Shown piece by piece: positions 1 to 44,200 of a DNA stretch of 64,000 bases (positions within the stretch are counted from its first letter, which is position 1; each line of letters begins with the position of its first letter). Origin of the DNA: Actinomycetota bacterium (GTDB lineage Bacteria > Actinomycetota > Rubrobacteria > Rubrobacterales > Rubrobacteraceae). The position numbers and the translations under genes are program-made. The notes under the pieces are model-generated. The model worked only from the letters and a program-made list of their open reading frames with translations, did not search any database and was not told the origin of the DNA. The DNA is taken from assembly GCA_004563715.1 (NCBI GenBank), contig SIRX01000021.1, forward strand, positions 1,580 through 65,579, read 5' to 3'.

Positions 1-2001
1 CCCGGTGAGCATCGTCTCCCAGCCGGTCGAGGCGACGGCGAGGACGCCGTGGTCGTCGCCCCCCACGCCGCCGTTCGCGGAGGGCTTCTCGCTCTCGGCC
101 TGCTTGAAGGCGTAGTAGATGGTCACGGGGTAGTCCGGGTTGGCCTTCTCGCGCATCCGGGCGAACGCTTCCCCAAGACCGCTCTCGAAGAACTCCTGCG
201 CCTTCTGCTTGCTGCCGCCGAAGCGGTAGGGCGTGGCGACTAGCTCCGCCGACTTGGGGACGAGCATCGTACCGAAGACCTCCGGGTAGACGCCGCCGAG
301 CGAACGCCGCAGCCAGACGTAGAAGAAGTCCGAGAGGTCGGCGTAGCCAATGTTATCGTAGTAGGGCGGGTCGGTCGAGATGACCGGGCGCTCGACACTG
401 TTGATAGAGTCGGTTGCATCTTGTTGATGAGCTTCGCTAATGCCTATTGCGGGAGACTCTGCGATTACTTTGTAAATCCAGTCAACTCCACCCTGAAAAT
501 TACCCGTCGAATCGCTCAACGGATTCGTCTCCGTGAAGTCCCAGTTCATCGGGATCGCCTGTCGCGCAAAGGTGTTTCGGATCAAATCTCGTCCAGAATG
601 CCAACTGGTTATGCTTGAACTGTAGTCGCTTAACCGGTCCACCGCGAACGCCAGATACGTCGCTACGGCGTCGGCGTAGGCTGCGGCCCGCTCTTCTGGC
701 AGGTCGCTAGCGAGGGCGTCGTTGCGGGCGCGTTCCCGCGCCTCTCCCACGAGGTCCGAGAACGTCCCGAGCGCGACGAGCTGGCGCGGGGTGAACAGGT
801 CGGCGAAGGTGGTCAGACCGTACGGGAGGCACCAGAGGTTGCGCGGGTCGTTCGCAAGCTCCTGCTCCGGCCCCCACTCGGGCCTTGCCCCCTCCGCCGC
901 CGCGACGTGTTCCCCGGTTGCCTCCAGGTACTTCCGGCCGCGATGCCCCTCGGCGACGACGGTCATCAGTTGCTGGCCCATGCGTCCGGCCTTGCCCTCG
1001 GCCTTGATGTGGGCGTCGTCCGAGATCTGGTCGCACACCAGACACCGGAACTTCGCTCCGCGCCCGAGCTTCGGCGGGTCCGGCGGCGCGCCGCTCGTCT
1101 GCCCATTTTTCACCACGAACCGGACGCCTGGCCTCCCGTCTTCGGTATCCGAGCCGTCCACGACGACCGGCTCGACCCACGCCTTCTTGTCTTTCTTCTT
1201 GGAGAGCCAGAACGAGCGGACGAGCGGCATCGTCGCGCCGCAGGCCGGGTTCGGGCAGCGGACGGTGCGCGCCCAGAGCCAGGCTATGACGGTCAACCCC
1301 TTCCCTGGGGCCGCAGCCATCCTGGCCGCATCACTCCCTGCTTCTCCCGCGGGCTGAAAGCTCCCGTCCCCAGGGTCCTTCACGGTCGGGTAGAGGTGGC
1401 CGATGCGCTCCTTCGCCTTCTTGCGCATCCAGGCCCCGTAGAAGCGCACGTCCTCGGCCAGCCCCTGCGCCCCGCGCCAGGAGGAGAGGTCGGCGGTCTC
1501 GCGGGACTCCGGGTTGACGGGAGGGTCGTTGGCGAACTTCGGCGGCAGCTCGATGAGGGCCTTCGTGATCATGACCGCCACCGGGTTCAGGTCGCTGCCG
1601 TGCGCCTCCAGCCCGAGCCGCTGGGCCTCCAGCGGGATCGAACCACCCCCGCAGAACGGGTCCAGCACCGGCGGCGGCTCGCCCCCGGTGGAGCACAGGA
1701 TCTCTTTCCGCGCCCTCCCCAGCACGCTCTCGTCCGAGGAGTTCTCCCACTTCACCAGCTCCCGGATAATGTCGAAGAGCCGCTCGCGCTCCCTTTGCGC
1801 CTCGTCTTCGGACAGGTCGTTCGACGGGTCGTCCACCAGCGAGGCGAACAGGACGGCCCGGCAGGCGGCGAGGGGTCTTCTGGCCCACCACAAATGAAGC
1901 GTCGAGGGGTGGCCGTGGCGGATAGACTTCTCGCGGGCCGACTCGGCGTTGATCTCGTCCAAAGGCAGCGCCACCTCGATCAGCTTCTTGCGGTAGGTCA
2001 T
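1..2001 (-). CDS. DUF1156-type DNA methyltransferase (N6-adenine/N4-cytosine class), C-terminus cut off by the window edge
   Basis: I translated the frame by hand. It is open for 667 codons from ATG 1999-2001, preceded by RBS GGAGGAAGGG. The N-terminus is [47 protein letters not shown], a DUF1156 signature. SAM motif I is DPFCGGGSIPLEAQ and motif IV is VISTDPPYYDNIGYADLSDFFYVW. It is absent from the ORF track because it runs off nt 1. Confidence 0.85.
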   Translation of the reverse strand, partial: MTYRKKLIEVALPLDEINAESAREKSIRHGHPSTLHLWWARRPLAACRAVLFASLVDDPSNDLSEDEAQRERERLFDIIRELVKWENSSDESVLGRARKEILCSTGGEPPPVLDPFCGGGSIPLEAQRLGLEAHGSDLNPVAVMITKALIELPPKFANDPPVNPESRETADLSSWRGAQGLAEDVRFYGAWMRKKAKERIGHLYPTVKDPGDGSFQPAGEAGSDAARMAAAPGKGLTVIAWLWARTVRCPNPACGATMPLVRSFWLSKKKDKKAWVEPVVVDGSDTEDGRPGVRFVVKNGQTSGAPPDPPKLGRGAKFRCLVCDQISDDAHIKAEGKAGRMGQQLMTVVAEGHRGRKYLEATGEHVAAAEGARPEWGPEQELANDPRNLWCLPYGLTTFADLFTPRQLVALGTFSDLVGEARERARNDALASDLPEERAAAYADAVATYLAFAVDRLSDYSSSITSWHSGRDLIRNTFARQAIPMNWDFTETNPLSDSTGNFQGGVDWIYKVIAESPAIGISEAHQQDATDSINSVERPVISTDPPYYDNIGYADLSDFFYVWLRRSLGGVYPEVFGTMLVPKSAELVATPYRFGGSKQKAQEFFESGLGEAFARMREKANPDYPVTIYYAFKQAESEKPSANGGVGGDDHGVLAVASTGWETMLTG
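1896..2000. repeat. Direct repeat copy 1 (105 bp) = first 35 codons of the intact methyltransferase gene
   Basis: Matches 2650-2754 at 104 of 105 positions (a versus g in ggcggatAgac / ggcggatGgac). The flanks diverge immediately on both sides. Confidence 0.9.
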
Positions 2002-2059
2002 CCCTTCCTCCGTCCGGTCGTCCCTCTATGTTCTTCGTCTACGCGGCGCACGCTGTCAC

Positions 2060-2534
2060 CTACCAACGCACCGGCTTCGTCACGACACCGTAAACATCTT
2101 TCAACGCCGGCGGGAACTGGCTCACTCTTAACGCCCCGGCGCGGATCTGCTTCATAAAGTCCGCCTCCTGAGCCAATACCCGGGACGGTCTCTTCTGAGG
2201 GTTCAAGATACCCACGGTGAGACCCAACTTCCTCCTGACCACACTAATCGGCTCCAGCAGGTCCGAGTCGTTGGAGACGACGACCGCCACCTCGTAGTCC
2301 TTCCTGAAACCATCGTACAGCAGGTGGGTAGCGAGGTTCACGTCCGACCCCTTCTCCTCGGGGATCGCCCGGCCTCGCACGAACGCGGGCCGTGAAGTAG
2401 CGGATGCGGTTGATCGCATTGCCTTTCAACAACGCGCCGCAGAGCTTACTCAGGTCGAGCCACTTGTAAGGGGTGCCCTTCAAACAGCCATAGTAGAGGT
2501 TGAAACCATCAACATACACGTTGGTTCTCTTCAT
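2060..2534 (-). pseudogene. NYN/LabA-like (PIN-related) RNase domain gene, inactivated by an internal out-of-frame deletion
   Basis: The N-terminal part [31 protein letters not shown]...RIRYFTARV..PGDP lies in one frame (ORF 2244-2534). The C-terminal part ..IPEEKGSDVNLATHLLYDGFRKDYEVAVVVSNDSDLLEPI.. lies in another (ORF 2060-2419). The frames switch near 2360-2370. About 50 residues normally found between the GDP and EEKGSDV motifs are missing. Confidence 0.75.
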
Positions 2535-2552
2535 CTATCACCACGAAATGGC

Positions 2553-2582
2553 AAAAAGCTGGGGCCACCTCCCGGCGACCCC
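2553..2582 (-). terminator. Intrinsic-terminator-like hairpin plus U5 tract
   Basis: Minus strand reads GGGGTCGCC-GGGA-GGTGGCCCC (7 of 9 bp stem) followed by AGCTTTTTGCC. It lies between the HEPN stop and the NYN start. Confidence 0.45.
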
Positions 2583-2620
2583 GCATCCCGCCGCCGAAGC
2601 AGCGAGAGTGATCTACCAAT

Positions 2621-2649
2621 ATAATAAATGATAACCCGTTGCTCTTCAA
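2621..2649 (-). promoter_or_regulatory. Sigma-70-like promoter, TTGAAG-17 nt-TATTAT
   Basis: On the minus strand the -35 is at 2644-2649 and the -10 at 2621-2626, with an exact 17-nt spacer. This is the most AT-rich patch of the region. The -35 directly abuts repeat copy 2. Confidence 0.4.
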
Positions 2650-2754
2650 GAAGCGTCGAGGGGTGGCCGTGGCGGATGGACTTCTCGCGGGCCGACTCGG
2701 CGTTGATCTCGTCCAAAGGCAGCGCCACCTCGATCAGCTTCTTGCGGTAGGTCA
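2650..2754. repeat. Direct repeat copy 2 (105 bp) = orphan duplicate of the methyltransferase 5' end. This accounts for the 5' end of track ORF 2531-2755.
   Basis: Encodes [35 protein letters not shown] and then diverges into non-homologous sequence. It begins with TTG (2755-2753), which overlaps the HEPN stop as TTGA. Confidence 0.9.
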
Positions 2755-3171
2755 AGCGTTCTCCTCCGGTTCGTAGCCGTGGCGTTTCAGGTTTTCAAAG
2801 GTGGTTTCGTAAACGTCTCTGGCCTGCCTTACGGCCAGCGCCGCATCCTGGCGGGATGCTTCGACGAAGTCGCCGGGGTAGCGAGGTTCGACGGCCCAAC
2901 GACTGAGACGGACGAGATCCTCATCCGAAACGCCGATCTCAAACTCGTCGGAGAGCAAACGCCGCAGGGTAAAAAGGTCGTGGGTCTTGGAGAAGGGGGT
3001 CTGCAAGTAGACGAGCGCGGCCTTCAGGGCCTTCTCGGCACACTGCTGGGCGTGAAAACAAGCCGCCCGCGGAACTTGACCATGTTCCAGAATTAACTCC
3101 GCCGTGCCCAGGTCTTCCCGGGCGTAGCGAAGCCACCGCGGAACTTCGGGAGGGTCAGCGCGCTCGCTCAT
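2752..3171 (-). CDS. HEPN domain protein (toxin of a HEPN/MNT pair)
   Basis: 139 aa, with ..[41 protein letters not shown].., which is typical of HEPN proteins paired with minimal nucleotidyltransferases. It overlaps the upstream MNT gene by 17 nt. Confidence 0.8.
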
Positions 3172-3538
3172 AAAGCACCTTTCCCTCTCGCAGAGCAGGG
3201 TAGAGTATCGTGCCCACCATGTTTCCCCGGCGTTCGATCTCTTCCGGGTCGGCGACTACCACGTCTATCGGAGCCGGCACCTCCGTCATGGCCAGACGCA
3301 CCTGCACCGCAAGCTCTCTCTTGTCCTCCCGCTCTACGCGGTCGAAGACAACCAGCAAGTCCAGGTCCGAGTCGTAGTTCGCCTCCCCACGTGCCACCGA
3401 CCCGAAAACGATCACCTTGAGCGGGTCGAATTGCTCTACGACCCGCTCCACGACCGCCGGTAGCCACTCTTCGACGGTCTTGCCCTCGTATAGAAAGAGT
3501 CCGGTCCTGTCTGTGCACGGGTTTCCCATGTCCCGCAT
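3155..3538 (-). CDS. Minimal nucleotidyltransferase (MNT, antitoxin partner of HEPN)
   Basis: Contains the pol-beta NTase motif VIVFGSVARGEANYDSDLDLLVVF. It sits directly upstream of HEPN in the canonical MNT-then-HEPN order. Confidence 0.8.
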   Translation of the reverse strand: MRDMGNPCTDRTGLFLYEGKTVEEWLPAVVERVVEQFDPLKVIVFGSVARGEANYDSDLDLLVVFDRVEREDKRELAVQVRLAMTEVPAPIDVVVADPEEIERRGNMVGTILYPALREGKVLYERAR

Positions 3539-3550
3539 TCTAGCGAAGGG

Positions 3551-6500
3551 CTAGGACGGAGGCTGAGACAGCTCCAGCAGCTTCTTGAGGTCGTGGTTCA
3601 CGCTGACCTCGGTGAAGCCGGGTTCTTTGTCGAAGGGGCTGCGGACGTAGCGCGGGTAGGCTGCATAGTCTCCGTCCACCTCGACGAGAGCGAGGATGAA
3701 GTCCTCGGGTTTGTTCAGGGCGGTGATGATCTCGTTTCGGGTCACCGTGACGGTCTGAGCGCCTTTCACCCTGCCTTTCACCTCGATCATCCGCAACCTG
3801 CCGGTCTCTTTATCTCTCGACTCGACATCGTAACCCCGGTTCTCTCTCGACACGTCCCGAGGGTCGTTGCCGAGGTCCAGCTCCGCCATGATGACGGCCT
3901 GCATGGCGAGGTTCTCGACCTTCTTGCGGGCTTCGGGGCTCGCGGCGAAGGTGTGAGGAGTTCCGGGCGCGGGGAGTTCCGCATCCGGTAACATTCCGGC
4001 GGGAATGACGAGCGCGGCCCCGACGATGTTGGGAGGGGCGGGAACGAGGTCTAGCTCACGGTCCAGCTCTTCCATCCGGCGCTCCAGCCGCCGGCTCAGG
4101 ACGTCGCGGCGGCGGGTGAAGTCGTTGATGGTTACGCGCACGTCGGGCCTGCGGCCCACCTCGTCCCACAGCTCCCCGAGCCGGCGGTCCCAGTACCCGA
4201 TCTCCGCCGTCAGGCGCTCGCGGACGAGCCCTCGCGCCTTCCCTACCTGCTCCTCGCGCCGCTCCCGCAGCTCTCGTAGATGCTCCCTGGCGAGGACCCC
4301 GGCGGCGTAGCTCCGCGCTTTCTCCGCCGCGCCTTTGGGCAGGTCCCCGACGTCTCGCAGGATATGCTTCTCCTCTTCGCGGATGGGTCGGTAGTCCAGG
4401 TGCGGGGCGAAGCCGGAGTTGCCGGCCTCTCCGGTGGCCGAGACCTCCACGAACTGCATCTTGCGCCCGGCGACGCGGTTTGCGTCGTCCTTACCTTTCC
4501 TGCCGTCGCGGATGGTGTGCTCCAGCAACGCCAGTACGCGGGGTTCCCTGCCGGTATCGGACTCGTCCACGAGCGCCGCACCCCGGACCAGGTTCCCGCC
4601 GCAGCGCTCCAGGACTAGCTGGCCGGCGGCGTCCACGACCGGGTGTCCAGGGTAGAAGAACACAGCCGGTGGTTTGCCCTTCACGCTACGCAAGGACTTC
4701 TCGAAGGTGATGCGTTCGTAAGCGCTTGCAATGCTGGAGCCGCCGGGTAGCCGCCGCGCCCGCTCGAAGATCACATCCGGCACCTTCCCGAGCTTGTAGC
4801 GACCCTTTTCGGGCTCGGTCGGCTTGCCCCCGAAGAGCCGCGCCGCTTCGAGGAAGAACGCGGCGACGAAGTGCGGCTGCAGGCGTTGGGCCGCCGCCCG
4901 CTCCATGTCCTCCCGTATCCTGCCGACGACGGACGGGTCCATCGCCTCGTGGGTGAGCGCCTGGTCCTCGACGATCTTCTTGAGGCGTTCCTGTTCCATC
5001 GCGAGGTCCAGTTTGTCGGTTACGCTCCGGCTTACCGACCCGCGCCCGCTCTCCCGGACGGCGGCCACGAGCAGCTCGCTCAACGACTGGTCCCGGAACA
5101 TCTCTCCGAGCACGTCGAACACCTTGCCGCCGAGGGCTTTGCGGGCGGCCTCCAGCTTCTCCAACAGGCGGCGGTAGACCTGTCCCTCGCGGGTGTCCTC
5201 CGCGACGAGGTTCCACACGTGGCACACCTCCGTCTGGCCGATCCGGTGTATGCGTCCGAAGCGCTGTTCCAGGCGGTTGGGGTTCCACGGCAGGTCGTAG
5301 TTGACCATCAGGGAGGCTCGTTGAAGGTTCACCCCCTCTCCGGCGGCGTCGGTGGCGAGGAGCAGGGCCGTGTCCGGGTCGTTCAGGAACTTCTCCTGGG
5401 CGGCCTTGCGCGCCTGGCGGTTCATGCCGCCCGTGATCTTTACGAGCCAGTCATCGCCCCGGAGCGCCTTCAGCTTCCGTTCCAGATAGCCGAGCGTGTC
5501 CTTGTGCTCGGTAAAGACGATCAGCTTCCGGGGAGACTCACCGTCCACAGAAGCGCGGCCGATTCCAAGATGGGGGTTCTGGAGCAGGTCGCGCAGTTGC
5601 GCCCACTTGCGGTCCCCGTGGCCGTTGCGCAGGACGCGGGCCTGCTCCTCCAGGGTCTTGAGGGTCACTATCTCCGCTTCGAGCTCCCGGATCGTGGTCG
5701 CGGCCGTGGCGAGATCCAGGACCTCTTCCTCGGTCTGCTCCACCTCGCCGGCGTCATCGAACTCCTGCACCTCGCGCCCGCCGATACCGAGCTGATCTTC
5801 GTAGTCTTCCACCCTCGACACGAGGGTTTCGAGTGAAGAGTCCCGCGCGACGCGCCCGAGCCTGCGGGCTTCTTTCAGCTTCTCTTCCAGCCTTTTGCGG
5901 CGGCGGACGAGGGAGAGGTAGATCGCCTCGGGCGAAGAAGCGAGCCGGCGCTGGAGGACCGTCAGGGCGAAGCCGACCGTGCGCTTGCGACCGTCGGCGG
6001 CCTGCTCCGCGCGGTTGAACTCCGTCCTTACATATTCCGTAACGTCCTCGTAGAGCCAGTGTTCCGCAGCCGAGAGCTTGAAGGGAACCATGTGGGCCAC
6101 CCGCGGCGGGAAGAGGTCGCTGCCATCGAACTTCTTCAGGTCCTCCTTGACCATGCGCCGCATCACGTCGTCCGTGTCCACTTTGTTCGCCCGGCCGCCC
6201 CGGAAGTACCGCTCGAAGCGGTCCGCGTCCAGCAGGCGCATAAAGAGCTGGAAGTCCTCCTCCTTGCCGTTGTGCGGCGTCGCCGTCATCAGCAGGAAGT
6301 GCCGCGTTGTCCCGGAGAGAAGCTCCCCGAGCTGGTAGCGTTTCGTCGGGGTGACCTCGCCCCCCGAGAAGGAGGCGCTCATCTTGTGCGCCTCGTCCGC
6401 CACGACCAGGTCCCACTCCGTCTGCCGAAGTGTCTCCTTCACCTCCTCATTGCGCGCGAGGTGGTCGAGGCGGCAGATCACGAACGGCTCCTCGGTAAAC

Positions 6501-7081
6501 GGGTCGCCCGTCATGGAGGACTCGACCTGTTCGCGGGCCACGATCCTGAACGGCAGCCCGAACTTCCCCCGAAGCTCGTCTTGCCACTGCTCCACCAGGC
6601 TCCCCGGGCACACGACCATGCACCGCTCCAAGTCTCCGCGGGCGATAAGTTCTTTGATGAGCAGACCCGCCATGATCGTCTTCCCGGCCCCCGGGTCATC
6701 CGCCAGCAGGAAGCGCAGCGGCTGGCGATTGAGCATCCGCTCGTAGACGGCGGAGATCTGGTGCGGGTAAGGGTCCACGAGCGAGGTATGCACGGCGAGC
6801 AGCGGGTCGAAGAGGTACGCCGAGCCTATCCTGCGGGCCTCCGCCGCCAGCCGGAACCGCGCCCCGTCGCCGTCAAAGCGCCACCCGCCGTCCTCCCGCA
6901 CGGCCTTCAGGTTCGGCTCGTCCGACCGGAAGAGCAGCCGCTCCCCGATGCGGCCGGAGGCGTCCTTGAAGATCACCTCCACCGTCCCGTCCCCGCCCGG
7001 CTCTACGCTCTTCAGCGTGACAGCCCCGCCGGAGGACAACCATTCGACGAGCATCCCTCTTCTCAACTCTTCAAGCTTCAT
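3551..7081 (-). CDS. SNF2/RapA-like superfamily-2 helicase with a C-terminal DUF3883 (PD-(D/E)xK-like) domain
   Basis: 1176 aa. Motif I is LLADDPGAGKTIMAG, motif II is VVADEAHKM, and further motifs are LLMTATPHNG and the helicase-C motif NYDLPWNPNRLEQRFGRIHRIGQ. The C-terminus has RGYDVESRDKETGRLRMIEVKGR..VTVTRNEI, which is DUF3883-like. Confidence 0.85.
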   Translation of the reverse strand: MKLEELRRGMLVEWLSSGGAVTLKSVEPGGDGTVEVIFKDASGRIGERLLFRSDEPNLKAVREDGGWRFDGDGARFRLAAEARRIGSAYLFDPLLAVHTSLVDPYPHQISAVYERMLNRQPLRFLLADDPGAGKTIMAGLLIKELIARGDLERCMVVCPGSLVEQWQDELRGKFGLPFRIVAREQVESSMTGDPFTEEPFVICRLDHLARNEEVKETLRQTEWDLVVADEAHKMSASFSGGEVTPTKRYQLGELLSGTTRHFLLMTATPHNGKEEDFQLFMRLLDADRFERYFRGGRANKVDTDDVMRRMVKEDLKKFDGSDLFPPRVAHMVPFKLSAAEHWLYEDVTEYVRTEFNRAEQAADGRKRTVGFALTVLQRRLASSPEAIYLSLVRRRKRLEEKLKEARRLGRVARDSSLETLVSRVEDYEDQLGIGGREVQEFDDAGEVEQTEEEVLDLATAATTIRELEAEIVTLKTLEEQARVLRNGHGDRKWAQLRDLLQNPHLGIGRASVDGESPRKLIVFTEHKDTLGYLERKLKALRGDDWLVKITGGMNRQARKAAQEKFLNDPDTALLLATDAAGEGVNLQRASLMVNYDLPWNPNRLEQRFGRIHRIGQTEVCHVWNLVAEDTREGQVYRRLLEKLEAARKALGGKVFDVLGEMFRDQSLSELLVAAVRESGRGSVSRSVTDKLDLAMEQERLKKIVEDQALTHEAMDPSVVGRIREDMERAAAQRLQPHFVAAFFLEAARLFGGKPTEPEKGRYKLGKVPDVIFERARRLPGGSSIASAYERITFEKSLRSVKGKPPAVFFYPGHPVVDAAGQLVLERCGGNLVRGAALVDESDTGREPRVLALLEHTIRDGRKGKDDANRVAGRKMQFVEVSATGEAGNSGFAPHLDYRPIREEEKHILRDVGDLPKGAAEKARSYAAGVLAREHLRELRERREEQVGKARGLVRERLTAEIGYWDRRLGELWDEVGRRPDVRVTINDFTRRRDVLSRRLERRMEELDRELDLVPAPPNIVGAALVIPAGMLPDAELPAPGTPHTFAASPEARKKVENLAMQAVIMAELDLGNDPRDVSRENRGYDVESRDKETGRLRMIEVKGRVKGAQTVTVTRNEIITALNKPEDFILALVEVDGDYAAYPRYVRSPFDKEPGFTEVSVNHDLKKLLELSQPPS

Positions 7082-7275
7082 ATCTCTCAGCCTCTGACAG
7101 CGAAAGGATGAACCCCGTAAACATATGTTCGCACCTTCGGTGCCCGTAGATAAACCTGCTCAAGCTAACGGCCCTCCCTCAACCTTCGGGCGCGCATTCA
7201 CCATACCATGCCACAGGTCAACAGACCCGCCTCGATGAGTACCAGAGCCGAGATATACCGGTTACAAAGCCGCGA

Positions 7276-8853
7276 TCAGGAAACCTCACACATAAAGAGC
7301 GGCGGGATGTGCATGTAGGTCGTGCTCGGGCTGGGGCCGACGACGTCCCGGGCCATCTCCAGGGCTTCGGCGACGGAGGCGGCGCGTTTGTAGCCCATGC
7401 GGGCGGTGGTGTAGGGGTCGCCGCCGACGAAGATAACGCCTCCAAGATGGTCGAGGGCGTGGGCGCCCCACTGCCAGGTGGTGAACGGGTGCCAGCCGTG
7501 GTAGGCGTGGGCGTGGCGGTAGAGGGTCCGGTACCAGGGGTCGTAGATGTACTTCTCCTCGAAGCGTTGCTCCGCCTCGTGCGGGTCGGTGGTCTCGGCG
7601 ATGACCTCCTCGAAAAAGGGCCGGTAGCTCGGGTGGTGGGCGTCGTCGAAGTCGTTGGGCACCGGGTGGGTGGCGATTATGACGCCGCCCTCACGCACCA
7701 GCGGTTTGCCCCGGTAGAGGTTGAAGAGGTAGCCGAGGACCATGTTGTGGACCAGGATCGGGTTCATTATGGAGTCCACGTTGTACGGCCCGAGGTACGG
7801 CACCCCGAGGAGCAGCACGTCCGCCTGGCCCTCTACGTGGACGAGCTGCTGGCGGTGGAGGTTCCTGATCGTCTCGTCGTGGACGGCGTCGGTGGCGCCG
7901 GCCTGCACGCTGGTCATCCGGTGCGGCGCGACGATGGACTGGAAGACCCGCCGGGCCACGCTGCGGGGCATGAGGCTGGTCGACTTGTGGTTGGCGAGGA
8001 AGTTGGCCTTCGTGATGGCGCTCCACTCGTGCTCGGGCTTGCCCATGAAGTCGAAGACCGCCGGGAAGGTGGCGTTGTTCAGCGTCGTCTCGATGTGGAA
8101 GACCTTGATGGCGTTGTCCAGGAGCTCGCCCATCCGGTTCACCGAACCGTGCAGGGCGGAGTTCGGCGGGTCCATGAGGCTCCTCGTGTTCCGCAAGGTG
8201 TGGGCGTTGTGGTGGTGGCGGATGGAGGAGTAGGGTGAGATGCCGGTGTGGACGGACTTGTGGCCGCCGTTCATGGAGACCAGGTTGATGTTCACGTAGA
8301 CGACCAGGTCGCTCTCGGCGGCGCGCTTGCTGATGCGGACCTGCTCGCCGTGCGCCGTCTCCCCGATGACCGTGTTGCCTTCTTCGTCCTCGGCGTCGTA
8401 GTTGTAGAGGCGGTCGGGGTAGTAGCGGGCCATGATCTTCTTCCCCAGCGCCCAGCGCAGCTCTTTCTCGGTCATGCGGCGGTGCAGCCCGAGCGCGGCG
8501 ATGAGGTGGATGTCCTCGACGCCCTTCGCGGCGGCCTTCTCCAGCACCTTCTCGATGACGAGCTGGCGGTTGTCCGGCGGGCGCATCGGCGGCAGCGGGC
8601 ACGAGACGTCGTCGAAGACGATGGTGAGCTTCATGCCGGGGAAGAGCAGCTCGTGCAGCGGCTCCATGCCCATCGGCTCCAGGAGCGCCCTCTCGATGGC
8701 GACGTTCGGGTCCGGCAACGGGTCCACGGGCGCGGGAGGGTAGATCACGCGGGTCCCCTCCGGCAGCTTCTCGTAGTGGAACCCGTCCCCCGCGTTGAAC
8801 ATCATCGGCGGGCTGTCGCTGTCCAGCGTGATCGTAAACCCGGGTCGGCTCAT
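7276..8853 (-). CDS. LarA-like (DUF2088, lactate-racemase-family) protein
   Basis: Motifs IAALGLHRRMT and NGGHKSVHTGISPYSS (equivalent to the GG-x-K cofactor-tethering region). The start was trimmed to ATG 8853, preceded by GGGAGGAAAG. The track ORF is 25 codons longer. Confidence 0.7.
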   Translation of the reverse strand: MSRPGFTITLDSDSPPMMFNAGDGFHYEKLPEGTRVIYPPAPVDPLPDPNVAIERALLEPMGMEPLHELLFPGMKLTIVFDDVSCPLPPMRPPDNRQLVIEKVLEKAAAKGVEDIHLIAALGLHRRMTEKELRWALGKKIMARYYPDRLYNYDAEDEEGNTVIGETAHGEQVRISKRAAESDLVVYVNINLVSMNGGHKSVHTGISPYSSIRHHHNAHTLRNTRSLMDPPNSALHGSVNRMGELLDNAIKVFHIETTLNNATFPAVFDFMGKPEHEWSAITKANFLANHKSTSLMPRSVARRVFQSIVAPHRMTSVQAGATDAVHDETIRNLHRQQLVHVEGQADVLLLGVPYLGPYNVDSIMNPILVHNMVLGYLFNLYRGKPLVREGGVIIATHPVPNDFDDAHHPSYRPFFEEVIAETTDPHEAEQRFEEKYIYDPWYRTLYRHAHAYHGWHPFTTWQWGAHALDHLGGVIFVGGDPYTTARMGYKRAASVAEALEMARDVVGPSPSTTYMHIPPLFMCEVS

Positions 8854-8961
8854 CTTTCCTCCCGTTCCTGCTAGGTACGCTTTGTGGTGCCGATGCTGTC
8901 CGAACGCTCCACCGGCTCCGGAAAGCATAGCAGCCGGCCCGCCGGGCGTAACGGCGAGAGC

Positions 8962-9663
8962 TCAGCCCGGCCCTTCGAGCCGGGGAGCGGCGCTCTCGGA
9001 GACGCCGGCGAGCCGCTTCTCGAACGTCCGCCGCCAGGAGGCGGAGAGCGCCGACAGCGCGAGCAAACGCTCGATGCCCGCCGCGTCGCGCCGGTCGCGG
9101 TGCATGACCCGGTTGGCCTCCGCCACGCTGACACCTTCCGGCGGGCGCTCGACGAGCTCTATAGCGTCGTCCGCCCGCACCTCCCCGGGTTCGAGGCACC
9201 GGAGGTAGAAGCCGGTGCGCCCGGTCTCCTGCACCCACAGCGCCAGCTCTTTCACCTCGTGGCGGGCGGCGAGCTTGTAGCAGGGCTGGCGCGGCTGGCT
9301 CACCTGCACCGCCGCCTCCCCGACCCGGTACACGTCCCCGACGCACACCTCCGGCTCCAGCAGCCCCTCCGTGGAGAAGTTCTCGCCGAAGGCGGCGGGC
9401 TCCAGCGGGCGGGCCAGCCGCTCCCGCCAGTACGGGTAGTGCTCCAGGGGGTAGACGCAGACCGCCTTGTCCGGCCCGCCGTGCGCCTTGAGGTCGGCCT
9501 GGGCGTCGCCTTCGAGACCAGTCTCCTCCAGCCACAGCGCCCCCAAAACCGGCGACTTGCGGAACCCGCTCTGCACCCACCGGCCCCGGTAGGCCAGCGG
9601 CGCGGGCTGCCCCACGTTCAGCGACTTCAGGCGCGCCGGTTCACCATCCTGGATAAAGTCCAT
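8962..9663 (-). CDS. MOSC domain protein (YiiM-like, with a C-terminal 3-alpha helical domain)
   Basis: Contains GDAQADLKAHGGPDKAVCVYP..ENFSTEGL..VCVGDVYRVGEAAVQVSQPRQPCYKL plus the helical tail VSVAEANRVMHRDRRD. Confidence 0.8.
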   Translation of the reverse strand: MDFIQDGEPARLKSLNVGQPAPLAYRGRWVQSGFRKSPVLGALWLEETGLEGDAQADLKAHGGPDKAVCVYPLEHYPYWRERLARPLEPAAFGENFSTEGLLEPEVCVGDVYRVGEAAVQVSQPRQPCYKLAARHEVKELALWVQETGRTGFYLRCLEPGEVRADDAIELVERPPEGVSVAEANRVMHRDRRDAAGIERLLALSALSASWRRTFEKRLAGVSESAAPRLEGPG

Positions 9664-15867: not shown

Positions 15868-16988
15868 GCCCGCGCCTCACTCCGGTGCGGCAGGCGCTTG
15901 AGCTCGGAGACCAGGCGCCGGCACTCCTCCGAGCGGCGCACGGAGACCCTCACGTACTCCGGCAGCCCGAACGAGGCGCAGTCCCGCACCTGCAAGCCCT
16001 TCTCCAACAGCGCCCGGCGCAGTTTCGCGGCATCCCCCACCTCCGCGAGCAGAAAGTTGGCCGCGCCCGGCGGCCCGGGGTAGCTGAGCCCGTCCAGCTC
16101 CCGGCGCAGAAAGGCCGCCTGCCGGGCCATCCGGCGGCGGCAGAGCTCCAGGTGGCGCGCGGCGGGCTCCGAGAGCGCGGCGAGCCCCGCCGCCTGGGCC
16201 GGGGCCCCGACGTTCCACGGCGGCGCGGCCACCCGCAGGGCGCGCACGACCGCTGTGGCGGCCAGCACGTACCCGAGGCGCAGGCCGGCGATGGCGTGGT
16301 CTTTGGTCATGGAGCGCAGCAGGGCCAGGCCCCCGGTGGCCAGCAGGTCCACCAGGCCGTCTGGCTCCTCCCACAACATCAGATCCCGGTAGGCTTCGTC
16401 TACCACGAGCAGGCCGCCCGCGGCGGAAACGCCCTCCAGCAACCTCTCGGCGGCGGGACGGCGCAGGTAATCCCCGGTCGGGTTGTTCGGGTTGCAGAGC
16501 CAGACGACCCGCGGCCTCTCCCGCGCCACGGTCTCCAACAACCCTTCCAGCGCCAAGGATACCCGGCCACGCGAGACGGCCCTGCCGAAAAAGAGCGTCC
16601 GGGCTCCACACAGGCGGCTGGCGCGCTCGTACTCGCCGAAGGTGGGCCCCACGATGAGGGCGGTGGCGGAGGGCGCGAGGTAGGCGCGGGCGAGGTGGTC
16701 GATCAGCTCGGCCGACCCGTTACCAAGGGCGACGCAGGAGGTGTCTACTCCCTCGCGCCCGGCGATCGCCTCCCGCAACGCGTGGCTCTCCCGGTCCGGA
16801 TAGCGGGCGATGTCCGCCGCCCGGACGGCCTTCTCTACCACCGTGGCCGGCCCGTACGGGTTGATGCTGGAGCTGAAGTCGATCACGGTCTCCGGCGCGA
16901 GGCCGAGACCGGCGAGCTCCGCGTGGTCGAAGGCACCGTGCGCCACGGGCTCCAACCGGTCGAACGGCGGGTTGGGCCGCGCGGACAT
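15864..16988 (-). CDS. cobD: Threonine-phosphate decarboxylase (CobD/CobC-type class I/II aminotransferase fold)
   Basis: Contains DFSSSINPYGP, YPD, NPNNPTG and RSMTKDHAIAGLRLGY. It lies between cbiB and cobU. Confidence 0.75.
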   Translation of the reverse strand: MSARPNPPFDRLEPVAHGAFDHAELAGLGLAPETVIDFSSSINPYGPATVVEKAVRAADIARYPDRESHALREAIAGREGVDTSCVALGNGSAELIDHLARAYLAPSATALIVGPTFGEYERASRLCGARTLFFGRAVSRGRVSLALEGLLETVARERPRVVWLCNPNNPTGDYLRRPAAERLLEGVSAAGGLLVVDEAYRDLMLWEEPDGLVDLLATGGLALLRSMTKDHAIAGLRLGYVLAATAVVRALRVAAPPWNVGAPAQAAGLAALSEPAARHLELCRRRMARQAAFLRRELDGLSYPGPPGAANFLLAEVGDAAKLRRALLEKGLQVRDCASFGLPEYVRVSVRRSEECRRLVSELKRLPHRSEARA

Positions 16989-17926
16989 TAGCCCCGTACC
17001 CCGGCCGGGGAGCGCCCGCGCAGCACCGTCGCCGCCAGTGCTCCCGCCGCGCAGAGGGCGGCGGCCCGGCGTCCCAGGCGCAGGGCGCTATGTATGTCCT
17101 CCGGTCCGGGGTCTCGGGCGCCGCGGTTTACGTCGTAGTATCCGGCCTTGCCCAGGACAACGTCCAGCGCCCCGGCGGCGGCGGAAATGGTCCAGCCCGC
17201 GTTCGGGCTCTGCGTGAGCCGGTAGTCCCGGACCATCGTCCGCAACGCCCGGCCCGCGCCCGAACCGGATGCCGCCGCGAGCGCCAGGGCCGTCAGGCGG
17301 GCCGGGACGAAGTTGAGAGCGTCGTCCAGCCGGGCGGAGGCTTTGCCGAGGTACTCGTAACGACCCCGGTAACCGAGCATCGAGTCCGCGGTGTTGGCGG
17401 CCCGGTAGAAGACCGCCGCCGGCAGCCCGCCGAGCGCGTAGTACATCAACGGCGCCACGAAGCCGTCCCCCAGGTTCTCCGCCAGGGACTCTATGGCGGC
17501 CGCCGCCACCCCGGGTTCTTCGAGGCCCGCCCGGTCGCGGCTGACGAGGGCCCGCAGCGCCTCCCGGGCGGCGGGGAGGTCTCCAACGGCGAGCGGCGCG
17601 GCCACCGAACGGCCGGCCTCTTCGAGAGCCCGGTGCGCGAAACAGGTCTTGAGCAGCCAGGCCTCCGCCGCCAAGCGCAGCGGCCCCGGCCGGATGCCTT
17701 CCAGAGCTTCCAGGGCTGCCCGGGCCACCAGCGCCGGGAAGAGCGTAACGCCGAGGGCGGTCGCCGCCCCGTACGCCAGCTCCCGGCGAGGCCCCTCCGG
17801 GGCGTGGCGCTCCAGGACGGAGATCAGGGCCCCGATACCCACCACGGGGTGCGCCCGCGCGGGCGGCTCGCCGAAGCACCGGTCCAACACCAGCGCCAGC
17901 AACAGGGCTACCGGCCGCGGCCTCAC
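16988..17926 (-). CDS. cbiB: Adenosylcobinamide-phosphate synthase
   Basis: N-terminus LLLALVLDRCFGEPP..HPVVGIG, typical of CbiB/CobD membrane proteins. The GTG start overlaps the cobT stop. Confidence 0.88.
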   Translation of the reverse strand: MRPRPVALLLALVLDRCFGEPPARAHPVVGIGALISVLERHAPEGPRRELAYGAATALGVTLFPALVARAALEALEGIRPGPLRLAAEAWLLKTCFAHRALEEAGRSVAAPLAVGDLPAAREALRALVSRDRAGLEEPGVAAAAIESLAENLGDGFVAPLMYYALGGLPAAVFYRAANTADSMLGYRGRYEYLGKASARLDDALNFVPARLTALALAAASGSGAGRALRTMVRDYRLTQSPNAGWTISAAAGALDVVLGKAGYYDVNRGARDPGPEDIHSALRLGRRAAALCAAGALAATVLRGRSPAGVRG

Positions 17927-39093: not shown

Positions 39094-40623
39094 TCACAGC
39101 CACAGCTCGCGGCTGCGGGCGACCTCCAGCGCCCGGACTATGGCGCGGGCCTTGTTGCGGGTCTCCTCGTACTCCAGGGCGGGCACCGAGTCGGCGACGA
39201 CCCCGCCGCCGGCCTGGAAGTAGGCCATACTGTCTTTCAGCAGGGCGGTGCGCAGCGTGATGCAGGTGTCCAGCCGCCCGTCCACGCCGTAGTAGCCGGT
39301 GGCGCCCGCGTAGGGGCCGCGGCGGGTGGGCTCCAGCTCGTCGATGATCTCCATCGCCCGCACCTTCGGCGCCCCCGAGACCGTGCCCGCCGGAAAGGCC
39401 GCCGCCAGCGCGTCGAGCGCCGTGAGTTCCTCCCGCAGCTCCCCCTCCACGGTCGAAACGATGTGCATGACGTGGGAGTAGCGTTCGATCTCCATGAAGT
39501 CCGCGAGCCGCACGCTGCCGACCTCGCTCACCCGCCCCAGGTCGTTGCGCCCGAGGTCCACGAGCATGACGTGCTCGGCCCGCTCCTTCTCGTCGGCCAG
39601 AAGCTCTTCGGCCAGAGCCGCGTCTTCTTCGGGGGTCGCGCCCCGCGGCCGGGTGCCGGCGACGGGCCGGGTCATCACGCGCCGCCCCTCGACCCGCACC
39701 AGCGGCTCCGGTGAAGCCCCCACGAGCGTCAGGTCGCCGAGCTTGAGGTAGGTCATGTACGGTGAGGGGTTGACGGTGCGCAGGCCCCGGTACAGCAGCA
39801 GCGGGTCCAGGTCCCCGATCTCCGCCTGGAACCGCTGCGAGGGCACCACCTGGAAGGCGTCCCCCGCCCGGATGTACTCCTGGGCCTTCTCCACGGCCTC
39901 CTCGTAACCGGCCCGGGTAAAGCGCGAGTAGACGTCCGGCTCCCCGCCGCCCGGGGACCGGGTGCGGAGCGCGGGCGGGCCCGAGAGCCGCTCCGTAACC
40001 CGGCGCACGTCGTCGGCCGCCCGTCGGTAGGCCGCGCCGAAGCCCTCTCCCTCAACGTCCCGCAGCCGGCCGGCGTCCACGAGCGCTATGACCAGGATCC
40101 GGTGCCGCAGGTGGTCGAAGACGACCAGCGTGTCGGTCACGGCGAAGCAAGCCTCCGGCACGCCCAGGTCGTCCGGCGGCGCGTCCGGCAACTTTTCCAG
40201 GTAGCGCACCGCGTCGTAGGCGAAGTACCCTACGGCCCCACCCACGAAAGCCGGCAGGTTCGGCAGCGGGGCGACGCTCCTCTTGCCCACAAGCTCCGCC
40301 AGGCCCCGGAAAGGGTCCGCCGCCGGGACCTCCCGAACGCCGTCGGCGTCCACGACCGTATAGACACCGTTGCGGTACGAGAGCGTGCGTTTGGGGTCAA
40401 AGCCGAGAAACGAGTAGCGGGCGAAGCGCTCACCGCCCTCAGCGCTCTCCAGCAGGAAGACGTTCTCTTCGGCGGCGAACTTCATGACGGCGGAGATGGG
40501 CGTCTCCAGGTCCCCGATAAACTCCGCGTATACGGGCACCACGTCGTGGTGGCGGGCGAGCTTGCGCGCCTCGCCCAGCGAGGGGGTCAGGTTCGCACCG
40601 GCGTTTCTAGCGGTGCCGATCAC
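39094..40623 (-). CDS. trpE: Anthranilate synthase component I
   Basis: Contains [33 protein letters not shown] and [15 protein letters not shown]. The start is assigned to GTG 40623, overlapping the hisIE end by 17 nt. The track ORF is over-extended to 40761. Confidence 0.85.
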
Positions 40624-41245
40624 CCAGCACCCGCGCCACCTCGTCGATGCCCACACCCCGCTCCTCCAGCAGCACCAGCAGGTGGTACACGAGGTCCGCC
40701 GTCTCCTCGGCGAGCCGCTCGCCCCGGAGCGCGGCGACCACCACCTCGACCGCCTCCTCACCGACCTTCTGGGCCACCCGCCCTGTTCCGCGCCGGATCA
40801 GGTCCGCCGTGTAAGACCCTTCCGGCATCTCCTCGTGCCGCCGGGCTATCGTACCCGCCAGGTGCTCGACCATGGGGCCGAAGCCCTCGTACTCATCCCC
40901 GCCGACCGCCAGGCCCACACCCTCGCCGGCCATCGTCGTAAAGAAGCACGTCCGCTCGCCGGTGTGGCACGCTGGCCCCCGGGGCTCGACTTTGTAGAGC
41001 AGGGCGTCGGCGTCGCAGTCCAACCGCACCTCGACCACCCGCTGCGTGTTGCCGCTGGTCGCGCCCTTCCGCCACAACTCCCCGCGCGAACGGGAGTAGA
41101 AGTGGGTCTCGCCCGTTTGCAAGGTCTTCTCGACGGCCTCCCGGTTGGCGTAGGCCAGGGTGAGTACCTCGCCGGAGGCCACGTTCTGCGCGATAACGGG
41201 CACGAGTCCCCGCTCGTCGAAGCGTATGTTCTCCACCGCGCTCAC
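40607..41245 (-). CDS. hisI: Bifunctional phosphoribosyl-AMP cyclohydrolase / phosphoribosyl-ATP pyrophosphatase
   Basis: The HisI part has [47 protein letters not shown]. The HisE part has [29 protein letters not shown] 41245 overlaps the hisF stop (GTGA). Confidence 0.9.
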
Positions 41246-42000
41246 CGGACCGGTATTCCCGCGCCGAGCATGTGTTCTTTGACTGCGGCAATGCTCCACT
41301 CCCCGAAGTGGAAGATGCTCGCCGCCAGCACCGCCCCGGCCCCGGCCTCCACGGCCCGGACCATATGCTCCGGCCCCCCGGCCCCGCCGGAGGCGATAAT
41401 GGGCAGCGTCGTCTTCTCCGCGACGGTGGAGATCAGGGCCAGGTCGTAGCCCTTCTCCGTGCCGTCGGCGTCCATGCTGTTGAGCACGAACTCTCCCGCA
41501 CCGCGTTTCTCGCCCTCGACGAGCCAGCCGATAGCGTCTATGCCCGTGTTTACCCGGCCCCCGTTCAGGTAGACCTCCCAGCCGGTTCCGCCCTCCCGGC
41601 GCTTGACGTCCACGCTCAGGACGACGCACTGGCTCCCGAAGCGCTCGGCCCCGGCGTTTATGAGGTCCGGGTCCTGCACGGCGGCGCTGTTGATGGAGAC
41701 CTTGTCGGCCCCGGCCCGGAGCATGGCGCGCATGTCGTCTGCGGTACGGACCCCGCCGCCGATGGTGTACGGGATAAAGACCTCTTCGGCGGTGCGGCGG
41801 GCGAGCTCGACGGCGGTGTCGCGGCGCTCGTGGGAGGCGGTGATGTCGTAGAAGACGACCTCGTCGGCCCCCTCGCGGTCGTAGAGCGCGGCCAGCTCCA
41901 CGGGGTCGCCGGCGTCCCGCAGGTCCTTGAACTTAGTTCCCTTCACGACGCGGCCCGCGGCCACGTCCAGACAGGGGATAATGCGCACGCAGAGGCCCAT
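41242..42000 (-). CDS. hisF: Imidazole glycerol phosphate synthase, cyclase subunit
   Basis: Contains [32 protein letters not shown] and ASGGAG. Confidence 0.95.
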
Positions 42001-42001
42001 G

Positions 42002-42859
42002 CTAGACGTAGGGCACCCCGGCGTTGCGGCACTCCTCGGCGATCCGGGCGTGCAGGGCGTCGGCCGCCGGCAGGAGCACGGAGCCCTCGTAGCCGGCGCC
42101 GACGACTATGGAGCCGCCGCGGCCCTTCCAGTGGCGGTGTACCGTGTAGGCGGCGAGCGTGCCCTCGACGAGGCTGGAGATCCGGTCCAGCTCCGCGTGC
42201 GAGAGCTCCGGGGTGATGTCGAGCTTGGAGATGTCCACGTTCTCCGGGGCCGCGAGGTCGGCGGAGAGGTTCCCGGTGCGCATCCGCAACCCCGGCGCGT
42301 TCCACAGGGTGTTTACAGCATCCTTGAGCGTCGCCGCCCGCTCCGTCTTGTTTCCCTTGCGCAGCTTGGGGTCGTCCATCTCGCGCAGCCTCTGGGCCAG
42401 GTCTCCGTTCCGGCCGTTGCAGTCTCCTTCCAGGGCGAGGACCTTCAGCGTCGCCGCGGAATCCACCTCCACCACGGTTCGCTGGCCCCGCCGGCGGCGG
42501 AAAGGGTAGTCCGTGTACTCGACCCCGATCCCCTCCAGCGCCGCCAGCAACTCCTCGGGATAGGGCTCCCCCCCGAACATCTTGCGGCTCGCCGAATAAG
42601 CCGGCAGGGCCACTTTGGAGAGCACGCGCTCTATCCTGCGGGTCCCGCGCTCGTTGGGGACAGAGAGCGGGGCGTCCACCCCGACCAGAACTCCCCGGCG
42701 CTCCGAGGCGTAGCCCTCCACGGCGGCGGAGACCTCCCCGGTGCTGCCCGCGAAGGCGTTGGCGAGGATACTCCCCCGCTCGTCCATAACCACCAGGCAC
42801 GAGGTCTTCTCCCGCGCCTCGCCCGGCCTCCAGGCCAGGGCACAGCCTATAAACCTCAA
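42002..42859 (-). CDS. DUF429-like (predicted RNase-H-fold) protein
   Basis: Sequence is RFIGCALAW..(TS)CLVVMDERG...[19 protein letters not shown].. The start is assigned to TTG 42859, overlapping the glmM stop (TTGA). Its stop is 1 nt before the hisF ATG. The family call was made by eye only. Confidence 0.5.
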
Positions 42860-44187
42860 ACCTCTACCTCCGCTCCCACGTCGGCCACGACCCCCGCGAC
42901 CTCCTCGCAGACCCGCCGGCACACCTCCTCGTCGGCGTGCTCGACCATGACCCGGACGACCGGCTCCGTGCCGCTGGGCCTCAGCAGGATGCGCCCCTCG
43001 CCGCCGAGCCGGGCCTCCGCCCGCGAGACCGCCCGGGCCACCGGCTCCGAACCGGCGACGGTCCGGGCGGAGACCGGCTCTCCGACGGCCACGTTTATCA
43101 GGCTCTGCGGGTACACCTCGATCACGTCCGCCAACTCCGAGAGGGGTTTGCCGCTGCGCGCCATCACGTCCAGCAGGGCCAGCGCCGTCAAAAGGCCGTC
43201 CCCGGTCGTCCCGTGCTCGGACAGGATAACATGGCCCGACTGCTCTCCACCCACGGCGGCCCCGGTGCGCTCCATAGCATCCGCGACGTGCCGGTCCCCG
43301 ACGGGGGTTACTTCGTACGGGACGCTCATGGCGTCCATCGCCTTGAAAAACCCCAGGTTGCTCATCACCGTGACCACGACGCCGCCCGCCAGCAGGCCGC
43401 GCTCCCGGAGGTCGCGGGCGAGGATGGCGATCATGCGATCCCCGTCTACCACGGCTCCTTTCTCGTCTACCGCCAGCACCCGGTCGGCGTCCCCGTCGAA
43501 CGCGAACGCCACGTCGTGCCCCACGGCCTCCAGCTGGTGAACGTGGGTCGAGCCACAGCCCGCGTTTATGTTCGTCCCCGTCGGCTCGTCCGCGACGACC
43601 GTCAGATCGGCGCCGAGGTCCCGGAAGACCCGGGGGGCGACCTCGTAAGCAGCCCCGTTGGCGCAGTCCAGCAGGACCCGCATCCCCTCTGCCGCCGGCC
43701 GCAGCCGTTCCAGCACGAACGCCGCGTACCGCTCTCCGGCGTCTTCCACCCTTCTGACGGCGCCGACACCGCCCCCTATGGGCCTCTCGGCATCGCCGTC
43801 CGCGAAGCGGCGTTCCAGCTCGCCCTCCGCCTCCGGAGAGAGCTTGCGGCCCGCGCCCGAGAAGAACTTGATGCCGTTGTCCAGGTAGGGGTTGTGCGAG
43901 GCGCTCACGACCCCGGCGGCGGCCGCGCCGAGCCGGGGGGCGAGGGCGGCTACGCCGGGGGTCGGAAGAACACCCAGGTCCAGGACTTCCGCGCCACCGC
44001 TGGCGCTCCCGGCCGCGAGGGCGCCCGAGAGCATGCCGCCGGAGACCCGGGTGTCGCTACCGATGAGGAGCGGCCCCCCGAAGGTGCGGGCGGCGGCCAG
44101 CCCGAGCCGCAGGGCCACCTCCGGGGTTAGGTCGCGGTTGGCGAGGCCACGCACCCCGTCGGTTCCGAAAGTTATTCGCTCTTCCAA
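42856..44187 (-). CDS. glmM: Phosphoglucosamine mutase
   Basis: Contains FGTDGVRG, VSASHNPYLDNGIKFF, DGDADR and GGEQSGH. The start is assigned to TTG 44187, 5 nt after GGAGGAGG. The track start at 44202 lies within the U tract and RBS. Confidence 0.9.
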   Translation of the reverse strand: MEERITFGTDGVRGLANRDLTPEVALRLGLAAARTFGGPLLIGSDTRVSGGMLSGALAAGSASGGAEVLDLGVLPTPGVAALAPRLGAAAAGVVSASHNPYLDNGIKFFSGAGRKLSPEAEGELERRFADGDAERPIGGGVGAVRRVEDAGERYAAFVLERLRPAAEGMRVLLDCANGAAYEVAPRVFRDLGADLTVVADEPTGTNINAGCGSTHVHQLEAVGHDVAFAFDGDADRVLAVDEKGAVVDGDRMIAILARDLRERGLLAGGVVVTVMSNLGFFKAMDAMSVPYEVTPVGDRHVADAMERTGAAVGGEQSGHVILSEHGTTGDGLLTALALLDVMARSGKPLSELADVIEVYPQSLINVAVGEPVSARTVAGSEPVARAVSRAEARLGGEGRILLRPSGTEPVVRVMVEHADEEVCRRVCEEVAGVVADVGAEVEV

Positions 44188-44200
44188 GATCACCTCCTCC

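Follow-up and report, generated by a model that had tools for sequence, protein, structure and literature searches.

A duplicated methylase 5′ end as a probable insertion-duplication scar in an Hma anti-phage defence operon

We analysed a 64,000-nt stretch of DNA from a member of the Rubrobacteraceae (assembly GCA_004563715.1, contig SIRX01000021.1, positions 1,580 to 65,579; hereafter the window), which contains a helicase–methylase–ATPase (Hma) anti-phage defence operon in which the start of the methylase gene hmaB is present twice. On the minus strand the genes run hmaA, MNT (minimal nucleotidyltransferase), HEPN, a 35-codon hmaB stub, NYN and intact hmaB. We interpret the repeated sequence as the scar of an insertion-duplication recombination in the Hma operon, most likely reached by Campbell-type integration, and put the probability of this reading at about two in three. 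The scar in the window is not a one-off: it belongs to a recurrent class at the hmaB 5′ end.

The repeat consists of positions 1896–2000 and 2650–2754, two direct copies of 105 nt that differ by a single mismatch (A at 1924, G at 2678), as the sequence-only reading that drew attention to this region had described. Similarity ends abruptly on either side of both copies. The self-comparison proposed in that reading shows the repeat to be real, and neither the repeat nor the 649-bp insert occurs a second time within the 64-kb window; chance cannot account for a 105-nt match with one mismatch in a sequence of 64 kb. Read on the minus strand, either copy corresponds to nt 2–106 of the DUF1156 methylase open reading frame (ORF), which is 35 codons plus one base and agrees with the 35 methylase codons claimed earlier. 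The gene copy and the stub differ at two places, nt 1 and nt 78.

The assignment of one copy to a living gene and the other to a dead stub also stands. Copy 1 (1896–2000) lies within intact hmaB, which starts with ATG (2001–1999), has GGAGGA as ribosome-binding site (RBS) 6–11 nt upstream of that codon (~2007–2012), and continues for 666 open codons (1–2001) to the window edge. Copy 2 is the old hmaB start (2650–2755): its TTG (2755–2753) overlaps the HEPN stop as TTGA and is followed by 35 codons, and the reading frame extends on to 2531, for an ORF of 74 codons in all. It matches the DUF1156 profile only at positions 1–26 and is a dead remnant. The TGA of this 74-codon ORF overlaps the NYN ATG (ATGA, 2531–2534), which together with TTGA makes a chain of start/stop overlaps. 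Translational coupling through the ATGA was considered and set aside: the motif is native to the NYN start in all relatives, and its overlap with the stub ORF is probably coincidental.

The 649 bp between the copies (2001–2649) carry a promoter-like site, a conserved leader with hairpins, one of them terminator-like, an NYN gene split over two frames and a spacer. The promoter-like site (2621–2649), with a −35 box TTGAAG at 2649–2644 and a −10 box TATTAT at 2626–2621, is conserved in Hma loci of the NYN type. It is followed by the leader (2525–2625; −10-like box and two GC-rich hairpins, the second terminator-like at 2582–2561 and then a T-run), the NYN start, the NYN gene itself (2060–2534) and a 58-nt spacer (2002–2059) that contains the RBS and is homologous to the 56–57-nt spacer of NYN-type loci. 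The reconstructed NYN protein matches PADLOC HEC-09, a 'Hma-embedded candidate' (E = 2.5e-33), and the gene is also recognised by Pfam NYN. It is encoded between hmaA and hmaB and is 63–67% identical to 208-aa homologues at the same position. Intact homologues have 207–208 aa, and the window NYN is not an intact ORF of ~208 aa. A nucleotide alignment with loci L092, L095 and L096 places a 152-column gap at ~2360–2362; this number is not a multiple of three, so the gene reads in two frames (ORFs 2534–2244 and 2419–2060). The content that the sequence-only reading had listed for the insert is thus present, but the NYN gene, which it had called decayed, did not decay gradually: it suffered a single 152-bp deletion, which, judged by the alignment, accounts for the frameshift and the inactivation of the gene.

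Both halves of this arrangement occur separately in relatives. In the closest metagenome relatives, L012 and L013 (HmaB 83% and 75% identical), MNT-HEPN leads straight into hmaB with no insert. L007, a contig of a Rubrobacteraceae metagenome-assembled genome (MAG), begins with a HEPN 3′ end that is homologous to that of the window and likewise fused to the hmaB start. The other configuration, NYN followed by the DUF1156 gene, had been suggested as something to look for, and we find that this system regularly has it within the genus: Rubrobacter xylanophilus CP073779.1 (L092) and L093–L098 carry hmaA, ~166 bp, NYN (208 aa), 56–57 bp and hmaB. The window insert aligns to these loci at ~85% nucleotide identity from the −35 box through the hairpin leader and NYN to the spacer, the 152-bp gap in NYN being the sole gross difference. 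This homology begins exactly at the 2649/2650 junction. There, homology to hmaB stops and homology to the hmaA–NYN intergenic region of L092, L095 and L096 starts, so that hmaB nt 106 is fused to the −35 region of the NYN cassette in an illegitimate joint; the first inserted base, 2649, is the start of the −35 box. Since both configurations are found in relatives and the insert aligns to the NYN type, the window is, on this alignment evidence, a hybrid of hmaA-MNT-HEPN-hmaB nt 1–106 and a segment from the NYN promoter through NYN and its spacer into hmaB.

To rationalize this structure, we propose that the locus originally read hmaA-MNT-HEPN-hmaB, the stop of HEPN overlapping the start of hmaB, and that DNA from an hmaA-NYN-hmaB-type locus was added to it, bringing the NYN promoter, the hairpin leader, NYN, the 58-nt spacer with its RBS and an hmaB start. 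One exchange would have found its homology in the first ~100 nt of hmaB, which are extremely conserved, and the other joint, at 2649/2650, would be illegitimate. A structure that needs both cannot be produced by homologous recombination alone. The sequence-only reading had favoured recent homologous recombination with a second DUF1156 locus that swapped in a different upstream region. The event is recent (99% identity between the copies, against 72–95% in comparable cases elsewhere), and the upstream region of another locus was brought in. What does not hold is that homologous recombination sufficed, given the illegitimate joint, or that a region was exchanged: MNT-HEPN and the old methylase start were kept and the new cassette is nested behind them, which makes the event an addition.

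The geometry of the scar is that of direct repeats formed by a contiguous piece of the target gene and flanking heterologous DNA, with one truncated copy that retains the native upstream region and one intact copy that has the incoming one. This matches insertion-duplications described in E. coli, where, with homology on one side only, 56 of 60 recombinants carried duplications of 109–950 bp of the homologous locus, which its authors explained by incoming DNA that was trimmed, closed into a circle and then integrated through a single crossover (PMC3240628). We favour Campbell-type integration because of this match. In the window, a single crossover would have joined the chromosome to a trimmed, recircularised fragment, presumably from a close (near-conspecific) donor, reaching from the NYN promoter to hmaB nt 106, and the 2649/2650 joint would be the closing point of the circle. 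The outcome would be the old hmaB start left as a 35-codon stub on HEPN, the new cassette behind it, and intact hmaB with the donor's spacer and ATG; the 152-bp deletion in NYN could have occurred afterwards or already beforehand. No dedicated recombinase is involved. The expression context of hmaB is normal for the system, lying behind the NYN promoter, leader and spacer as in NYN-type loci. From the 105-bp direct repeats one would also predict that the NYN cassette can be lost precisely through RecA, restoring HEPN-hmaB.

Several observations weigh against this reading. Both 105-nt copies are 88–90% identical to L012, L001 and L007 but 79–83% identical to the known NYN-type loci, and they have window-specific variants in common. 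The two copies are thus both resident in type, which leaves a nearly conspecific donor or a duplication of resident sequence by a template switch or a staggered break. A Campbell-type event needs a donor hmaB 5′ end at least 99% identical to that of the recipient; the databases contain no conspecific hmaB allele, the best HmaB being 82% identical. A 754-bp circle and a 105-bp crossover target would each make the event rare. Any microhomology at the joint would have to be read from the donor itself; between hmaB nt 93–106 and donor-like promoter regions there are imperfect similarities (CCTCG in L096; G.CGCT.C in L095), and these two loci are relatives, not the donor. The structure of the window is read from assembled contig sequence, and the loci that support recurrence are nearly all metagenome contigs or MAGs. 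Among finished plasmids (84 records), three with two hmaB places were inspected and have no stubs, the second place being a complete Hma system or having nothing within 9 kb; short or decayed stubs fall below the threshold of this search.

Attempts to locate the crossover were uninformative. Sliding-window identity of hmaB to MNT-HEPN-type and NYN-type relatives shows no switch, the whole 5′ region being of the resident type. The ATG and the first 20 nt of the gene copy are identical to L096. The differences at nt 1 and nt 78 were considered as markers of donor and recipient, but nt 78 (TCC or TCT) varies in both groups and is not diagnostic. Which of the two configurations was resident is formally ambiguous.

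Comparable scars occur in other Hma loci. We scanned 96 loci, 11 of them from genomes, 80 from metagenomes and the others fetched via NYN homologues, for extra copies of the hmaB N-terminus. Some 90 (~90) extend for 500 nt or more upstream of hmaB, and ~12 of these carry partial copies there, a frequency (~13%) obtained on a sample skewed towards the relatives of a single query: the window, L007 (two), L022, L026 (identical to L027), L029, L033, L037, L052, L055, L062 (two), L065 and L085. All stubs begin at or near the start codon, frequently overlapping the stop of the preceding gene. They end at different places, ~nt 35, 65, 72, 88, 95, 105, 105, 115, 140, 146, 185, 235 and 295 for 13 stubs, with no shared motif past the breakpoint among these. 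Between a stub and the next copy lie 0.4–6 kb of DNA encoding PIN (with a VapB-like partner), HigB/HigA, DarT with Macro-domain DarG, ParE/RelE-type toxins, an SLFN-AlbA_2 ATPase, NYN or unannotated ORFs. In L085 (477–2608), for example, a complete DarT/DarG (Macro) toxin–antitoxin pair lies between a 185-nt hmaB stub and intact hmaB. At the long end of the same spectrum, L029 has a 759-nt partial copy (375–1133 versus 2847–3605), 91% identical and 2.1 kb upstream of the full gene, with an opposite-strand 449-aa ORF of unassigned function between the copies.

Outside the window, stubs are 72–95% identical to their gene and some contain stop codons or indels. Diverged stubs cannot be assembly artefacts, and the phenomenon is therefore real; at 99%, the window is the youngest case seen. 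Among ~90 hmaB 5′ ends, the nearest relative of a stub is its own gene in 9 of 14 cases. No relative shows the arrangement of the window with diverged repeats, the pattern that the sequence-only reading would have taken as a sign of an ancient duplication; cassettes and breakpoints differ among relatives, and the events are therefore independent. L007 illustrates this, having the ancestral HEPN-hmaB junction of the window with other insertion points and cassettes.

Two loci, L007 and L062, have two layers each, and in both the stub distal to hmaB has decayed further, which is what one would expect were every new cassette to enter next to hmaB. The L007 array (1–1812) comprises the HEPN 3′ end, a 13-codon hmaB stub, a VapB-like gene with PIN, a 36-codon stub, HigB/HigA and hmaB. 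We tried L001, in which VapBC precedes hmaB, as a base-level donor reference for the VapBC layer of L007, and found it too diverged upstream of VapB for the joint to be placed. In L062, a HicB-like segment (1905–2168 versus 7084–7347) is duplicated upstream of each stub (2714–2777 and 8880–9110), which suggests that a whole unit of toxin–antitoxin module plus hmaB 5′ end was added twice; an opposite-strand NYN gene lies between the proximal stub and hmaB. Paralogous Hma loci able to exchange cassettes can coexist in one replicon, as follows from a finished plasmid of Planktothrix agardhii NIES-204 (plasmid2, AP017993.1; L101/L102), which carries two complete Hma systems at ~39433–51340 and 75683–85760 with different embedded genes.

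The preference for the hmaB 5′ end is marked. In an unbiased self-comparison of all loci it is by far the commonest dispersed direct repeat. Targeted searches for stubs of other gene ends found none of the hmaA 3′ end in 69 loci, one of the hmaC 5′ end in 55 (L082) and one of the hmaB 3′ end in 64 (L049). The L082 case (15944–16066 versus 17178–17534) is a 41-codon stub 1.2 kb upstream of hmaC, and that of L049 (6932–7048 versus 2484–2726) is a partial copy 4.3 kb downstream of hmaB. When 70 hmaB genes are aligned by codon, codons 11–60 form the nucleotide-conservation peak of the first 500 codons, with 74–78% mean pairwise identity as opposed to ~45–60% over most of the gene. This peak directly adjoins the most-used variable slot, which makes the hmaB 5′ end the best homology anchor between diverged Hma loci.

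Familiar insertion mechanisms do not fit the window. Transposon target-site duplication, dismissed in the sequence-only reading too, is contradicted by the length of the repeat (105 bp, where such duplications are short, 2–14 bp), by the lack of terminal inverted repeats around the insert and by the lack of any transposase or integrase within ~15 kb on the sequenced side of the locus. Site-specific integration was rejected on the differing breakpoints of the 13 stubs, with no junction motif and no recombinase in the same ~15 kb. Classical homology-facilitated illegitimate recombination (HFIR) was rejected too: recipient sequence is duplicated in the window, and nothing is missing relative to L012, L013 and L007.

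A less likely origin, to which we give a small but appreciable share of the probability, is target duplication by template switching, in which both 105-nt copies are resident sequence. During replication or repair, a nascent strand would have departed from hmaB at nt 106, continued on the NYN cassette of another Hma locus, foreign or paralogous, and come back by way of ~20 nt of identity at the hmaB start, resident nt 1–106 thus being copied a second time; in a variant, a staggered break was filled in around captured DNA. The 99% identity of the copies and their common window-specific variants, beside a cassette ~85% identical to known donors, would follow directly, and the stretch shared with L096 at the hmaB start could serve as the short return homology. 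However, a conspecific donor accounts for the same facts, and the closeness of stubs to their own genes fits a single crossover as well. Template switching would moreover require the 72–93% stub-to-gene identities elsewhere all to be decay after insertion, and we found no direct precedent for it; the one experimental case that we did find ascribes its duplications to single crossover of circles (PMC3240628). It is very unlikely that the structure is an assembly artefact, in which coexisting MNT-HEPN-type and NYN-type strains or alleles were misjoined through their shared hmaB 5′ end. The repeat is near-identical and about as long as a short read, and exact-protein look-ups with HEPN, MNT, HmaA and the NYN gene call gave no second assembly of the locus. 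A chimera through the shared segment would, however, yield HEPN-hmaB or NYN-hmaB and not hmaB nt 106 joined to the NYN promoter, where there is no shared k-mer; the copies differ at one base, and analogous structures with diverged copies occur in 11 other loci from independent assemblies.

The concentration of stubs at the hmaB 5′ end, and layered arrays with the newest cassette next to hmaB, might instead point to dedicated, integron-like capture, with the hmaB 5′ end as the site of a site-specific recombinase or of a nuclease of the system. The NOV_C domain of HmaA is a nickase in vitro (PMC11232893), and a conserved hairpin element lies at the 5′ edge of the NYN cassette, and one Abi_2 cassette has it in the same place. 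We regard such capture as very improbable: breakpoints are scattered over nt ~35–295 with no common motif past them, no recombinase is nearby, the hairpin element is absent beside the stubs of all other loci, and the DNA-conservation peak beside the most-used variable slot explains why hmaB is affected. The broader idea that the hmaB 5′ end is a functional capture site and Hma operons are integrase-free cassette platforms, with the NOV_C nickase or the edge hairpin promoting breaks or strand exchange in programmed stacking, is highly doubtful on the same scale; if it were true, the direct repeats would also permit precise excision. We retain insertion-duplication, by single crossover with a circular donor fragment, as the preferred explanation.

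The hairpin element at the 5′ edge of the NYN cassette is ~100 nt long and consists of a −10-like box, a hairpin with a UUCG loop and a second, GC-rich hairpin that resembles a terminator and has a U-run. The element is found in the window (2525–2625, minus strand), L092 (5910–6010), L095 (2672–2772), L096 (5803–5903) and L070 (8834–8942). Among Rubrobacter loci it is ~95% conserved, compared with ~85% for the NYN coding sequence. A covariance model retrieved one further copy, that of the distant locus L070, where it separates hmaA from an Abi_2 gene; this copy contributes six compensatory pairs, all from that single sequence. The element has no Rfam match, and the insert as a whole has none even at E = 1. 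It could be the hmaA terminator, or a leader or attenuator of the embedded gene.

The locus is an Hma system, a type that also goes by the name of Type-1 BREX-related system. Hma comprises the helicase-nuclease HmaA, the DUF1156 methylase HmaB and the DUF499 ATPase HmaC, with other defence or toxin–antitoxin genes between the core genes in about two thirds of hma systems; NYN (HEC-09), one of the embedded families that have been catalogued, conferred no protection when tested (PMC11232893, bioRxiv 10.1101/2024.01.29.577857, PMC12839542). In the window, hmaA (3551–7081) encodes an SNF2 helicase of 1176 aa with a C-terminal NOV_C nuclease domain, a full-length PADLOC match (1448 bits; Pfam SNF2-rel_dom, Helicase_C and NOV_C). 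HmaB, on the same strand, is a DUF1156 N6-adenine methylase (PADLOC 812 bits; Pfam DUF1156 E = 5e-30). The window ends inside hmaB; downstream of it, the relatives L092 and L096 have a DUF499 protein with HEPN_Swt1, which is of the HmaC type. In L097 (2260–8203) one gene call spans at least 2036 aa and combines DUF1156, HEPN_Swt1 and DUF499, an apparent hmaB-hmaC fusion or read-through, where the near-identical L096 has two separate genes. The HEPN gene (2752–3171; Pfam HEPN E = 2e-23), the toxin-like half of MNT-HEPN, has homologues directly upstream of hmaB in L012, L013 and L007, and is overlapped by the MNT gene (3155–3538; Pfam NTP_transf_2 and Polbeta; PADLOC PDC-S09). Past hmaA the genes are ordinary chromosomal ones (LarA-like, MOSC, MarR, cobalamin synthesis).

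Embedded defence and toxin–antitoxin genes are found in many multi-gene defence operons, including those of Hma, BREX, DISARM and Type I restriction–modification, and 'guilt by embedding' has been used to discover systems. For Hma, the scars offer a testable answer to how embedding comes about: ordinary recombination, anchored in the ultra-conserved hmaB 5′ end, exchanges and stacks cassettes. Where the second joint is illegitimate, the old cassette is kept, which gives rise to layered arrays whose order records their history. Stubs could serve to date and trace the gain of a cassette, and the same logic may extend to other embedded-gene hotspots.

The system and the slot are those described for HEC-01 to HEC-09 and the hmaABC 'defence gene insertion hotspot' (bioRxiv 10.1101/2024.01.29.577857; PMC11232893): the NYN of the window is HEC-09 in the same place between hmaA and hmaB, and the MNT-HEPN, PIN, RelE and Abi modules seen here are typical embedded genes in those studies as well. 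They catalogue the embedded genes and describe neither hmaB 5′ stubs nor layered arrays nor the structure of the junctions. The preprint states that what underlies embedding is still to be explored, and nowhere uses the word 'recombination' (bioRxiv 10.1101/2024.01.29.577857).

The closest mechanistic relatives lie elsewhere. The insertion-duplications of PMC3240628 resemble the Hma scars in having variable direct repeats, 109–950 bp there and ~35–295 bp, or 759 bp in L029, here; in both, the repeats are the homologous part retained on the incoming DNA and flank a heterologous insert. They were obtained with laboratory plasmids in E. coli conjugation, whereas the window would represent a natural event with a very small insert and a circular intermediate that we infer. 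Classical HFIR of naturally transformable bacteria likewise has one homologous and one illegitimate end and gains foreign DNA beside an anchor. It typically combines insertion with a deletion in the recipient and shows 3–10 bp of microhomology at the joint (as summarised in PMC3240628), where in Hma recipient sequence is duplicated. In integrons, too, small promoter-proximal cassettes form an ordered array, and it is the newest that adjoins a fixed site; unlike them, Hma has no integrase, no attC-like conserved junction and variable breakpoints.

Most similar in its consequences is the sequential displacement of effector–immunity modules in type VI secretion systems (T6SS), together with the orphan arrays of Rhs and contact-dependent inhibition (CDI) loci (PMC5361080). 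There, too, a conserved anchor and an illegitimate joint place a new module next to the anchor and keep the old one, and layered arrays with gene remnants form with no integrase. Successive layers in which the older is the more decayed are found in L007 and L062, and the window has one layer. In T6SS, Rhs and CDI loci the anchor lies upstream and the orphans (3′ fragments and immunity genes) downstream; in Hma it is the downstream gene whose 5′ end provides the anchor, and older modules collect upstream of it. The Hma scar further differs in that the anchor is duplicated and the cargo consists of toxin–antitoxin or defence genes. By this analogy, the Hma case can be regarded as a variant of sequential displacement. 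The recombination itself is of a conventional kind, and the novelty lies in recognising the scars as a recurrent record of embedded-cassette gain in a defence operon.

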